Assembly (NCBI GenBank): GCA_030770535.1
Contig: JASVEC010000026.1
Location: 728,958 to 748,957 of the forward strand
Direction: 5' to 3'
From: Batkoa obscura
Lineage: Eukaryota
Length of the DNA: 20,000 nucleotides
Below are positions 4,241-15,832 of this stretch, piece by piece; the first letter of the stretch is position 1; every line of letters begins with the position of its first letter. A model generated the notes under the pieces. It made no database searches. It saw nothing but the letters and a program-made list of their open reading frames with translations, and was not told where the DNA came from. The translations under genes and the position numbers were made by a program.

Positions 4241-4732
4241 ATGAAATTCACTTTACTATTACCGTTTATTGCCACTTTAATTTGTGGTAATATAATTCCT
4301 ATCTCATCCTCTGATAGTACTGAAAGCAATGATTTATTCCTTCAAAAGGTACCAATGGAACCTATCGTTTCCAACTTATTACTACAACCCAATCCTAGTT
4401 TGATTGAAGCGGATAAAGAACAATTAAATTCTTCACCAAGTACCCCTGCTTTTGCTACCGAACCTTGGCGTAGAGGTGGATGGCGTGGAGGATGGAGAGG
4501 TGGACGTTGGGGTGGATGGAGAGGTGGACGTTGGGGTGGATGGAGAGGTGGACGTTGGGGTGGATGGAGAGGTGGACGTTGGGGTGGATGGAGAGGTGGA
4601 CGTTGGGGTGGCGGCTACTATGGGGGTGGTGGTTATTATGGAGGTGGAGGCTACTATGGAGGCGGTGGCTACTATCGCGGAGGATGGAGAGGTGGACGTT
4701 GGGGTGGATGGAGAGGTGGACGTCGTTGGTAA
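4241..4732 (+). CDS. Secreted prepro-protein with a Trp/Arg/Gly(/Tyr)-repeat mature region (paralog 1)
   Basis: 163-aa intronless ORF: signal peptide MKFTLLLPFIATLICG, acidic pro-region ending EQLNSSPSTPAFATEP, then 88 aa containing only W, R, G and Y. TATA upstream, AATAAA near 4802. Confidence 0.85.
   Translation: MKFTLLLPFIATLICGNIIPISSSDSTESNDLFLQKVPMEPIVSNLLLQPNPSLIEADKEQLNSSPSTPAFATEPWRRGGWRGGWRGGRWGGWRGGRWGGWRGGRWGGWRGGRWGGWRGGRWGGGYYGGGGYYGGGGYYGGGGYYRGGWRGGRWGGWRGGRRW
4490..4729 (+). repeat. Coding tandem repeats: 24-bp GGATGGAGAGGTGGACGTTGGGGT x5, four GGGGYY-type 18-bp units, then ~1.8 further 24-bp units
   Basis: Perfect 24-bp copies at 4490-4609 and from 4682 are directly visible. 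Confidence 0.95.
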
Positions 4733-5862
4733 TGGTAATATATGATGCTATATCTTGTTATTCTCATAATAAGCTTAAGTTTTCTATTTTCATTGCATTA
4801 AAATAAAGTGCCCTTTGACTATTTGCTTTGATTTTTATTTGTAGTACCATATAATTGTTTACACATCAAATTAAGTTTTAAAGGCTATTAATTGTGAAGC
4901 TTTGTATAAAATAATGGCATTTAATTTTAAAATGGTTGAAAAGCCTTAAAAAGATAACATTTGACTTAAACTAAATAAAACCTTCCATTAACTTAGTGTA
5001 CTCTTATTTTAGTCATAACAGTATGTTTAGTACATACACATCAATTTAATATCTAGTCATAATTAAATTAAAAGCTGGCAATCATACGGATAATAAACAA
5101 CAGCCTGTAAAGAACAAAAGTAGAAGTATAAACAGTATGAACTGATAGAATTAATAAGCTTAGTTGTTAACATTAATCTATTTTTTTCAAGCTTTTCTCT
5201 TCCACTTCTATTTGCTTTATTCTCTTCAATTTCTGTATTGTTTCAAATAAATTATACTATATGTTATAACGTATGTATAGAGTAAAAAAAACATCTATAA
5301 TTTACACTTATTAAAATATAAATAATTAGATGATGAGTTTTTAATTATATTGAAATAGATTAAGGATAATTTTTAATTTATTAGTATTTTATTAAAATAA
5401 GAAATTTATCAATTCAATAAAGTATACTTAATAATTGAATATGATAATTATGTCTATACTCATAATCTATGAGTGCACTCAATAAATGATTTATCTAGCT
5501 TTATTTTTTAATTGATTTTGATGTATAATAAACTTGAGTTTATTAAGTTTATTATTTATAGATTGTATTAAAAAATTATTATAGTATTTATTCTGTTTAC
5601 TCTCAGTAAAATATATTCATGAAAAAGATAGAGTTTTGTATTACAATAAAGAAAGTTGACAAAAAAATTGATAATATCACAAATAAAAGGAGATTTAATA
5701 AGTTAACTTTTGAAACACAAAATCTATTGATCAATAATGACCAAAATATTTAAAATCTAAATATTAGATTTATGTTGTTTAAACTTAATTTGTTTATTAT
5801 TTGTTATTACTTTATGTATCTCTTAAGTTATATAAAATAATACTGATTATTCATTAAATAAT

Positions 5863-5893
5863 GATAACAATAATAATAATAATAATAATAATA
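5863..5893. repeat. (AAT)n microsatellite
   Basis: A run of AAT units is visible in the intergenic region. Confidence 0.75.
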
Positions 5894-6113
5894 AAATAAA
5901 CCACTTGATTAACTAACAGCTGATAAGAAGAATTAACAATTAATATAAAAAATGAAAAAATTAATAAACCTAAATTGATAAAAATTAATCATGCTATAAG
6001 AAATATAACAAACAATAAAACAATAGAACAAACTAAACATAATAATAAACATTACAAAATGAACTGGTGCTTGATAAACTTTAAACTGATAAAAGTGATA
6101 AGCGTAAGAAACA

Positions 6114-6126
6114 AAACTATATAAAC
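6114..6126 (+). promoter_or_regulatory. TATA-box element AAACTATATAAAC
   Basis: Ends 32 nt upstream of ATG 6159, the same spacing as in paralog 1. Confidence 0.6.
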
Positions 6127-6158
6127 CGATACTATTCATTACATATACCTCAACAAAA

Positions 6159-13299: not shown

Positions 13300-13400
13300 A
13301 TTTAGAAGTATTTTTGTATTTAAGAATTTCACTAATAGTTTTTCCGCTCAAATAGCGCTTAAAAAGTAGAAGTAATGAAACCAAAAAAAATACCTCCATT
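13300..13400 (-). mobile_element. MITE-like element, copy C (inverted)
   Basis: TTTTTCCGCTCAAATAGCGCTTAAAAA...GAAACCAAAAAAAATACCTCCAT is the reverse complement of copy B. Confidence 0.65.
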
Positions 13401-13676
13401 TTATGACGTAAATTTAAATTTAGCCATTTTGACTTTATAGCATTCAAATAATAGTTGGGTTATTATACAGTCACTTGGCAGAATTGTTAATATGCCTTTG
13501 AAAAGCTATTGATTTTATTAAAGCTCAAAGAAAAATCAATTCATTACTATTCAAGCTGTTTTTTGATATATTTAATGGAATAACGAAAAAGTGAAAAAAA
13601 CAGGTGTTTAATAAATCTCATTAATTTATTCGATTTGTTTTCTTGATTGAGATTTGTATAACAAATAGTTTTTTAT

Positions 13677-13782
13677 ATATTGAGATATTTTTTCTGGTCT
13701 CATTACTTTTTCTATTTTTAAGCGCTATTTGAGCAGAGAAATTGTTAGTAAAGTTGCTAGGCAAAAAGATACATCCCCATAT
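13677..13782 (+). mobile_element. MITE-like element, copy D
   Basis: TTTTTTCTGGTCTCATTACTTTTTCTATTTTTAAGCGCTATTTGAGCAGAGAAATTGTTAGTAAA...ATACATCCCCATAT is highly similar to copy B. Confidence 0.65.
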
Positions 13783-15418
13783 ATTGAATTGATTTTACCA
13801 ATTGTTGTAATAAAGTTGTCCAATTTGATTGCTATTATTTTTAAGATTTATTTAGTTTATAAGTCCAAAAGTTTTTTACATAAAGACATTATAGCAGTAA
13901 ATGTAATTCTAACTAATTTTTCAATACATAAAAATTAGTATAGTCCTTGATCCTATAGATGCCATCAATAAATTGGAATATACGTTGTAACTTGAAATTT
14001 CATAAAATAAAACATTTTAATTAAAGCATTTGCTAGATCTTTAAATATGATAGTTGTTTGATATTTAACAGATAATAATTTAAAAACAGACAATAAATCA
14101 ATCAACATTAAGAAGGAGTTTTTAAAGTCTATTATTACGATAAAAAGCTATTAGTTGATAAAGTATCTAAAAATAGAATTTAAAATTCAATATTTTGAAA
14201 TACCACATGGAAATTTTCGACTGATATTAGCAGCAAGGGTTTATGAAAGCTATGAAAGTATTTTTATATAAATATTGTTTTATTGTATTATTTTTGATTT
14301 TTAAAATAGCAAATCGCTGGGGTTGATTGATTCTTTAAGGTTTTAAAGACTGAAAATAGTACACTGTTGCAATTTTATTGCGATCTAATATGCGATAACT
14401 TTTAGAATCAATATTCGTTTGTTTGGTTTTTTTAATAATTGGCTTCTGTTTTTAGCATAGTTTTGAGAAAATTTTGTTTTTAATTAGTAATGTCCCATTA
14501 GAATTGCAGCAGAAGTAAATTTTACTAATGGATAAAATTTGAAATCAGCAGGATAGTGAGATAGGAAATAAAAGTGGAGTTATTACTTCAAAAATAGTTG
14601 GACGCGGCCAAAATATATAAGAACTACAAAAATTCAAACCTTTGAAATTCTGAATGCATGCATTCAAAGAATTGCGATATTTATTTGTAGAATTGTTTTG
14701 ATACTTAGCTTGGGGATTATACCTAAAAAATTTAGAGATCATGAAAAGTAAAATATCACATGAGGCTTGCAAATTTAGTAGGCTTCTTTTGTTGTTCTCA
14801 TAATATCCTTGACGTCACTTCGTTATTTTTAGCCAGCATACATAAAAAGCTAAAAGGCTTGGAGTAAATATATCCAAATAAAGAATTGGAGATAGGAGCC
14901 ATAAAAGAATTAAACTATCAGTGTTTTCAACTAGTCTTTATATACCATTACTTAGCTCTATGCGTTTTTATTAAAATTATAGATCTAAAAGGATAATATG
15001 TATGAATCTTTTCTGTCTTAATATTCAACTTACAACCTTTAAAGTTTCATTAAATAAAATATGGACAAAATATTCAAAGCCATTTTAGCGTGTTTTTAGA
15101 TGCCTAAAGGAAATGTTACATAATAGACTTTATTATATCCGTAAGGTAACATTAATTTCATTTTAAGAACAATAAATAGTCCGTTTATTGCAAATAGAGT
15201 ATGGTGAAACTACTAAATTTGAGTATAGTGTTTAAATTATCCGTTTAACAATTATTATCATCCATAATCCCTTTAAAATAAAACTATTCAAAGTATAGAG
15301 AAATAAAATGAATGAAAAAAATTAGCTATAAATAGTCAAAAAAAACATTCAAATATAACTAAACTTTTTAAATAAGAATCATATATCTGCCTATCAATTG
15401 TATATAAATCAAATCAAG

Positions 15419-15832
15419 ATGAAATTTTTAAATATCGCTTTGTTCTCTGCTGCCGCCCTTTCTGTAAATACTCTATCGATTCGTGGCTTATTTTCTAGCA
15501 TTAAACGTGAGTTTAATCAAGGAGTTGTAACCAATGACGGTAAAGCCACTATCTATGAGTTGTGTAACTATGATAAACGTTTCAACTCAGCTGCAACTGT
15601 AAAAGAATTGACAGATTTACTTCATGATTGTGAATATTATTACAGAGAAGTGGTTAAAAACAAGGAAGGTAGAGATAAAGAGCTTGAAGCAGAAATCGAT
15701 GGAATTGAGGAAGAGGTTTTTGATAGAATGGTCACATTTGCGGGTGAAGGCTCTGAAGATGAAGCTGGTAAGACAAAAGTTAAAGGACGCTCACCTCTTA
15801 AAAGAACTATTTTGAAGGTTCTTAAACTTTAA
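15419..15832 (+). CDS. Secreted KR-processed precursor with one copy of the shared C-X21-C domain and a C-terminal KR-TILKVLKL tail (137 aa)
   Basis: The true start is ATG 15419 (MKFLNIALFS aligns with MKFVNFALFS of the paralog), not the TTG at 15398. Signal peptide, KR at aa 29-30, C49-C71. Confidence 0.85.
   Translation: MKFLNIALFSAAALSVNTLSIRGLFSSIKREFNQGVVTNDGKATIYELCNYDKRFNSAATVKELTDLLHDCEYYYREVVKNKEGRDKELEAEIDGIEEEVFDRMVTFAGEGSEDEAGKTKVKGRSPLKRTILKVLKL

Follow-up and report, generated by a model that had tools for sequence, protein, structure and literature searches.

The 20,000-nucleotide (nt) window analysed here (Batkoa obscura, GenBank assembly GCA_030770535.1, contig JASVEC010000026.1, positions 728,958 to 748,957) carries a patch of six adjacent genes, which we call G1 to G6 in their order along the + strand (Table 1; coordinates are window positions). 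The patch is best read as a lineage-specific group of predicted secreted-protein genes that grew by local duplication. It is real, but it is an ordinary duplication cluster and not a proven virulence island. From the sequences, we consider it quite plausible, though short of probable, that three separately arising families and two tandem duplications produced the patch, and that G1 and G2 encode prepropeptides with microbe-damaging tails. As a genomic island the patch is ordinary and its contents are more useful: it holds two protein families without a Pfam/NCBIfam match at curated cut-offs (all scores of G1 to G6 were below cut-off), from an order of insect pathogens that has been little studied. 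The most testable part is the G1/G2 pair of putative antimicrobial Arg/Trp/Gly prepropeptides.

An earlier note on this DNA had described six intronless, co-oriented genes for secreted proteins, accompanied by a tRNA and miniature inverted-repeat transposable elements (MITEs) and lying between intron-rich genes. These observations were confirmed. All six open reading frames (ORFs) are on the + strand and begin with MK and a hydrophobic core (9-residue mean hydropathy of 2.1-3.3 within the first 20 residues); their secretion is predicted from a hydropathy scan of the N-terminus alone. No AT-rich GT..branch..AG candidate intron was found in the 3174 coding bases, while about 16 introns would be expected at the density of the flanking genes (14 introns in ~2.7 kb, on rough flank models). 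The gaps between the six genes are 1426, 1477, 718, 1668, and 3129 nt, against 268 and 299 nt for the flank spacers, and the distances at the island edges are 558 and 522 nt. Reading the spacers by eye revealed no transposase-like frame or notable ORF, the longest frame being 93 amino acids (aa) stop-to-stop across MITE copies. The tRNA-Thr(AGT) was called by both ARAGORN and Rfam.

The DNA matches Neoconidiobolus thromboides: G6 has, letter for letter, the sequence of an NCBI protein from strain FSU 785, and G5 differs from KAI9293802.1 of the same strain by one residue. Among sequencing runs on record, 12 runs from 9 studies were listed for this DNA, none of them an RNA run; three DNA-type runs from three studies contain 0.69-0.72 of the words of 2500-12400, and one of the three may be its source, while runs with smaller shares were set aside. 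The FSU 785 records matching G5 and G6 are each on a 68,275-nt contig, probably the same one. The exact sequences of G1 to G4 were not found in the searched NCBI protein collection, nor was that of G5. N. thromboides (Entomophthorales) is described as a saprobe and opportunistic pathogen (PMC6169396). A literature search found no paper naming these proteins, and expression tables in supplements or in subscription papers could bear on them.

Acidic pro-regions and Gly/Trp/Arg tails of G1 and G2

In both G1 and G2, an acidic pro-region of 58-66 aa (pI 4.1; net charge -6 in G1 and -10 in G2) precedes a tail built from G, R, W, Y, and P alone, with mixed Gly codons. The G1 tail has 88 aa (G45 R19 W16 Y8, net +19; codons from 4466) with RGGRWGGW and GGGGYY repeats, and the G2 tail has 55 aa (G24 W19 R9 P3, net +9; codons from 6408) with WGWRGG and WGRP repeats. 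The G2 proprotein as a whole is near neutral in charge. The junction before the tail is conserved between the two proteins (QLNS..P..PAFA[AT]EPW). Dibasic sites are limited to RR at 77 and 161 in G1, and G2 has none.

G1 and G2 are paralogues that have coding sequence and short TATA/promoter and 3' blocks in common. The ratio of nonsynonymous to synonymous substitution rates (dN/dS) of their prepro part is about 0.19 (76 codons, rough NG86 estimate), and synonymous sites are near saturation. The saturated dS, the conserved prepro part, and the common promoter and 3' blocks together indicate that the tandem duplication is old and that purifying selection has acted. Metagenome scans gave 598 matches to G1/G2 patterns and 162 to G3 patterns, none of which was confirmed, and no related loci were found.

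The helical repeat family of G3, G5, and G6

A helical repeat of ~67 aa occurs three times in G3 (34-104, 157-225, 239-305) and once each in G5 and G6. Homology was supported by shuffling among the G3 repeats and G6 (z 5.9-14) and more weakly for G5. When a profile made from the five repeats in the window was compared with 1.84 billion representatives, six proteins were recovered at E <= 0.001: G5, G6, three further proteins of N. thromboides (on contigs of 39,191, 124,442, and 77,841 nt), and one of Massospora cicadina. A profile built from these four off-window proteins alone recovered all three G3 repeats, G6 (2e-10), and G5 (1.3e-06). The closest relative of G3 is off the island (KAI9292601.1, 59% identical). 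The domain tree, in which two of ten branches are well supported, was used for two groupings only, that of the first G3 repeat (G3a) with KAI9292601.1 and that of G5 with G6. With members on three further contigs of N. thromboides and in M. cicadina, the repeat family is dispersed and predates the patch. The repeat is a small, defined, and well-modelled candidate secreted domain that is common to Massospora. The Massospora protein, KAI0244039.1, has two helical repeats that both lack the two Cys residues; its N-terminus is unlike a clean signal peptide, and the start of the gene model may be wrong.

AlphaFold modelled the G6 repeat unit with confidence as a helical bundle (predicted local distance difference test, pLDDT, 88.7), and an independent model from the single G3 sequence gave three units whose helix pattern matches that of G6. 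Among 13 repeats, both Cys residues of the pair are present in eight, both are absent in three, and a single one is present in two, suggesting that a disulfide is optional. Foldseek found nothing at E <= 0.001 for the repeat in the PDB and viral sets, and in the Atlas G6 had no usable feature match and structure rows below the bar. An apparent similarity to protein A was rejected as a repeat-summing artefact, since none of the summed repeats was significant by itself (each i-E 35-170). Like staphylococcal protein A and MIT domains, the repeat is a predicted small helical bundle present in one to three copies in a secreted protein, but the matches are those of a generic bundle and homology is not supported. 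Word-based protein searches returned G6 itself and G5 only for G6 and a low-complexity Thr-rich match only for G3, and with G2 residues 1-92 none of 28 candidates reached E <= 10 (G1 was not run on large collections); blanks from this search are weak, as the G3 query missed KAI9292601.1.

G5 and G6 are a local pair of paralogues whose flanking DNA is 71% identical upstream and ~80% identical downstream. Their 3' block has a dS of 0.42, whereas the short 5' block has a dS of ~1.9 (36 codons), and the closer resemblance of the 3' block to G6 hints at conversion or chimerism in G5. G5 also contains a 67-aa insert (11771-11971) with KR sites and a C-x3-C-x16-C-x3-C pattern, bounded by an 8-nt repeated microhomology (CAAGG.GT). 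The insert resembles a two-disulfide helical hairpin and may be alpha-hairpinin-like. Neither this insert nor G4 is related to the helical repeat (z <= 1.6).

The three secreted families proposed by the earlier note hold if G3 is grouped with G5/G6 (giving G1/G2, G3/G5/G6, and the singleton G4) and not otherwise. No relative of G4 was seen in Pfam/NCBIfam or in the within-window comparison (large collections were not searched with G4). ORFs of at least its length (101 aa) occurred in 5 of 400 simulated spacer sets, and in none of the 400 with a signal-like start. G4 is the least supported of the six genes; it is nonetheless unlikely to be a chance ORF.

Possible functions of the proteins

Many antimicrobial precursors consist of an anionic pro-piece followed by a cationic aromatic peptide. 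The proposed history and mechanism would be as follows. Three separately arising families would have been gathered between two housekeeping genes and doubled by two tandem duplications, and their short secreted-protein genes would be strongly transcribed. In G1 and G2, the acidic pro-region might mask the cationic Gly/Trp/Arg tail until cleavage near the PAFA[AT]EPW junction frees it. The freed tail might then attach to microbial surfaces or nucleic acids and damage them, acting on competing microbes in soil or in the insect cadaver. We infer that the tails, once freed, are likely to be antimicrobial. The three-helix repeats of G3, G5, and G6 might serve as small, often disulfide-stapled, multivalent binding modules.

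Two known groups of peptides can be compared with G1 and G2. The nematode NLP/caenacin peptides are described as basic and glycine- and aromatic-rich, and they resemble G1/G2 in having a signal peptide, such repeats, and duplicated genes (PMC6780910). In contrast, G1/G2 are fungal, carry a 58-66-aa acidic pro-region, and are dominated by Trp/Arg rather than Tyr; the likeness is at best convergence. In the KEX2-processed repeat proteins (KEPs), which are reported to be abundant in Zoopagomycota, repeats are separated by KR/RR/KK (PMC6339444, PMC7329392). G1/G2 are likewise predicted secreted fungal precursors with repeats, and an XA/XP-like run lies ahead of their tails. There is no KR/RR/KK between the G1/G2 repeats, however, and on this ground G1/G2 are not KEPs.

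Several observations weigh against the antimicrobial prepropeptide reading and the binding modules proposed with it. A STE13 signature would be an XA/XP run following a KEX2 site, but the run found ahead of the tail (SP ST PA FA TE; TP GA PA FA AE) is broken or shifted out of phase and has no preceding dibasic site; this, together with the lack of any dibasic site in G2, leaves tail release unproven. The YGGWG/YGGYG motifs of the NLP/caenacins do not occur in the G1 or G2 translations. Gly/aromatic/Arg repeats fit wall, glue, or coacervate proteins equally well, and the closest cluster in the Atlas, one of oomycete glycine-rich proteins (0.84), is a lead only. As for the helical repeat, the Cys pairing is broken in two of the 13 repeats, including that of G5, and the fold, being that of a generic helical bundle, is silent on function (the best VIA match, with Z 8.7, root-mean-square deviation 2.0, and 70 aligned, was tied with unrelated chains).

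Some of the same features would suit a structural or adhesive role, in which the Arg/Trp/Tyr/Gly tails self-associate through cation-pi contacts into a sticky coat around discharged conidia or hyphae, the acidic pro-region keeps them soluble in the secretory pathway, and the helical repeats are surface-binding partners. We think this unlikely, but it has support from several sides. Minimal Trp/Arg peptides have been reported to self-coacervate (PMC11323023), and the entomophthoralean fungal adhesive was described as still undetermined (PMC8588673). The tails are long (55-88 aa), Gly-dominated, and without clean protease sites, and the oomycete cluster, as a lead only, points the same way. On the other hand, they have no Cys or recognisable wall-anchoring signal, and the conserved junction ahead of the tail suggests processing. 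GW motifs serve as Argonaute hooks. The tails contain 10 (G1) and 6 (G2) RGG motifs and 8/6 (G1) and 15/12 (G2) GW/WG dipeptides, so that they might instead be effectors that enter host cells and bind host RNA or Argonaute, blunting insect RNA regulation. A precedent is the SP7 family, secreted repeat effectors of an early-diverging fungus that are reported to act in host nuclear condensates (PMC11333574). Since RGG and GW/WG motifs arise automatically from a four-letter G/R/W/Y composition, and the species is described as a saprobe and opportunist (PMC6169396), we regard an effector role as very improbable.

If the antimicrobial prepropeptide reading is extended, G1/G2 could be the first fungal gene-encoded prepropeptides releasing a 55-88-residue, almost pure Gly/Trp/Arg peptide, the natural equivalent of Arg/Trp peptides designed to be antimicrobial or self-coacervating. 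G3/G5/G6 could then be an Entomophthorales-specific, disulfide-stapled three-helix family retained both in a soil opportunist and in Massospora, an obligate pathogen of cicadas, and the proteins could jointly form a secreted kit that defends the cadaver against microbes or glues spores to the cuticle. This extended proposal is doubtful. The tails would bear on two questions, fungal competition with microbes and the composition of the spore glue, the latter raised in PMC8588673.

Genomic setting of the patch

Clusters of small secreted-protein genes of the Ustilago maydis type and two-speed genome compartments are known from fungal pathogens. Similar to these, the genes in the window are adjacent, intron-poor, and lineage-restricted, with predicted signal peptides and tandem paralogues. 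The earlier note had read them as a co-regulated defence/virulence cluster in a repeat-rich, gene-sparse compartment, and this island reading was partly supported. In its full form, with one fast-evolving island whose six genes are all induced together in insect infection, we consider it improbable. In its favour, six predicted secreted, intronless genes are adjacent and separated by long spacers, the same TATA 12-mer spans two families, and the repeat family was seen in Entomophthorales alone, among them an obligate pathogen of cicadas. However, gene density and repeat content are at the genome mean or on its ordinary side, unlike in the two-speed compartments. There is one gene per 1.93 kb here and one per 2.78 kb genome-wide (24,635,576 nt/8867 genes, as given in PMC11105155), and MITE DNA accounts for 3.8% here, counting only the repeats visible within the window, against the 13.5% repeats given for the whole genome (PMC11105155). 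Thus the patch is neither gene-sparse nor repeat-rich.

Other parts of the island reading fared differently. Growth by local duplication was supported for G1/G2 and G5/G6; the nearest relative of G3 is off-island. The common orientation is not significant: with duplicates counted once, three families would agree by chance in 25% of cases, and the co-orientation follows from tandem duplication. The earlier note had named a genome-wide spread of such genes as contrary to its reading, and part of this was found, in that members of the G3/G5/G6 family occur on three or more further contigs. It had also proposed measuring dN/dS, which among paralogues was 0.52 (104 codons), 0.09 (36), and 0.19 (76) by rough NG86 estimates. 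None exceeded 1, and no positive selection was seen in the paralogues, in contrast to the two-speed clusters.

The TATA-like boxes claimed for all six genes were found before five of them. AACTATATAAAC occurs as an identical 12-mer at -41 to -53 of G1, G2, and G3, with 0.03 expected for a motif that was picked after being seen. G5 and G6 have a CTATAAA-type box at -92, and G4 has looser TATA-like sites only. The sole apparent sign of common control is thus a core promoter element, and co-regulation of all six genes is not assumed. A cluster of TGATAA sites is confined to G2, with 7 in 500 nt compared with 0-2 before the other genes, and together with TTGATA at G1 it suggests possible control by a GATA factor. 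Within 5850-6120, a region chosen by eye before G2, there are six TGATAA/TTATCA sites versus 0.4 in shuffles. G1 has a tandem TTGATA at ~4139-4160.

Table 1. Features of the window, with positions, strands, and descriptions
Feature	Position	Strand	Description
Left flank gene	2545-3682	+	3 introns (rough model), C-terminal UBA domain
TATA box AACTATATAAAC	4197-4208	+	identical copies at 6115 and 7997
G1	4241-4732	+	163 aa; predicted signal, acidic pro-region, Gly/Trp/Arg tail
G2	6159-6575	+	138 aa; predicted signal, acidic pro-region, Gly/Trp/Arg tail
tRNA-Thr (AGT)	6905-6979	+	ARAGORN; Rfam RF00005 67.7 bits
G3	8053-8970	+	305 aa; predicted signal, three ~67-aa helical repeats, Thr/Pro-rich linker
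G4	9689-9994	+	101 aa; predicted signal and basic 85-aa mature part
MITE-like ~110-nt repeat, copy 1	10178-10289	+	
MITE-like ~110-nt repeat, copy 2	10370-10480	+	
G5	11663-12289	+	208 aa; G6-like N-terminus, 67-aa insert, one helical repeat (112-179)
MITE-like repeat, copy 3	13299-13403	-	inverted, one end decayed
MITE-like repeat, copy 4	13676-13785	+	
G6	15419-15832	+	137 aa; predicted signal, KR site, one helical repeat (42-109)
MITE-like repeat, weak copy 5	16089-16182	-	nhmmer E 8.6e-06; beyond the limits drawn in the earlier note
Right flank gene VPS27/Hrs	16355-18723	-	VHS, FYVE, UIM domains; ~11 introns (rough model)

The MITEs reported earlier are present as a multi-copy, non-coding repeat of ~110 nt in both orientations, with four clear copies at 75-89% identity and one weak copy. 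The copies have imperfect terminal inverted repeats, and four of the five have TA at both ends, TA being common anyway in DNA of 76% AT. Given the copy number, the terminal inverted repeats, and the TA flanks, the label MITE is fair. Tc1/mariner-type MITEs have a TA target duplication. The repeat resembles them in length, non-coding nature, terminal inverted repeats, TA flanks, and occurrence in both orientations, while it differs in that its inverted repeats are imperfect.

The flanking genes are intron-rich, as had been claimed. The right one is VPS27, as proposed, with VHS, FYVE, and UIM domains. The left one has a UBA domain, and its identification as UBAP1-like is only plausible; an N-terminal DFSLEK stretch is, we presume, reminiscent of the UBAP1 UMA domain, and Pfam had no match for that exon. 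The two neighbours of the patch both resemble genes for endosomal ubiquitin sorting (ESCRT). Upstream of VPS27 there is a Pirin-family gene (19023-20000, - strand; Pirin_C_2 above cut-off). At the other end of the window, an intron-dense and very AT-rich gene (1-2276, - strand; 15-20% GC) runs off the window start.

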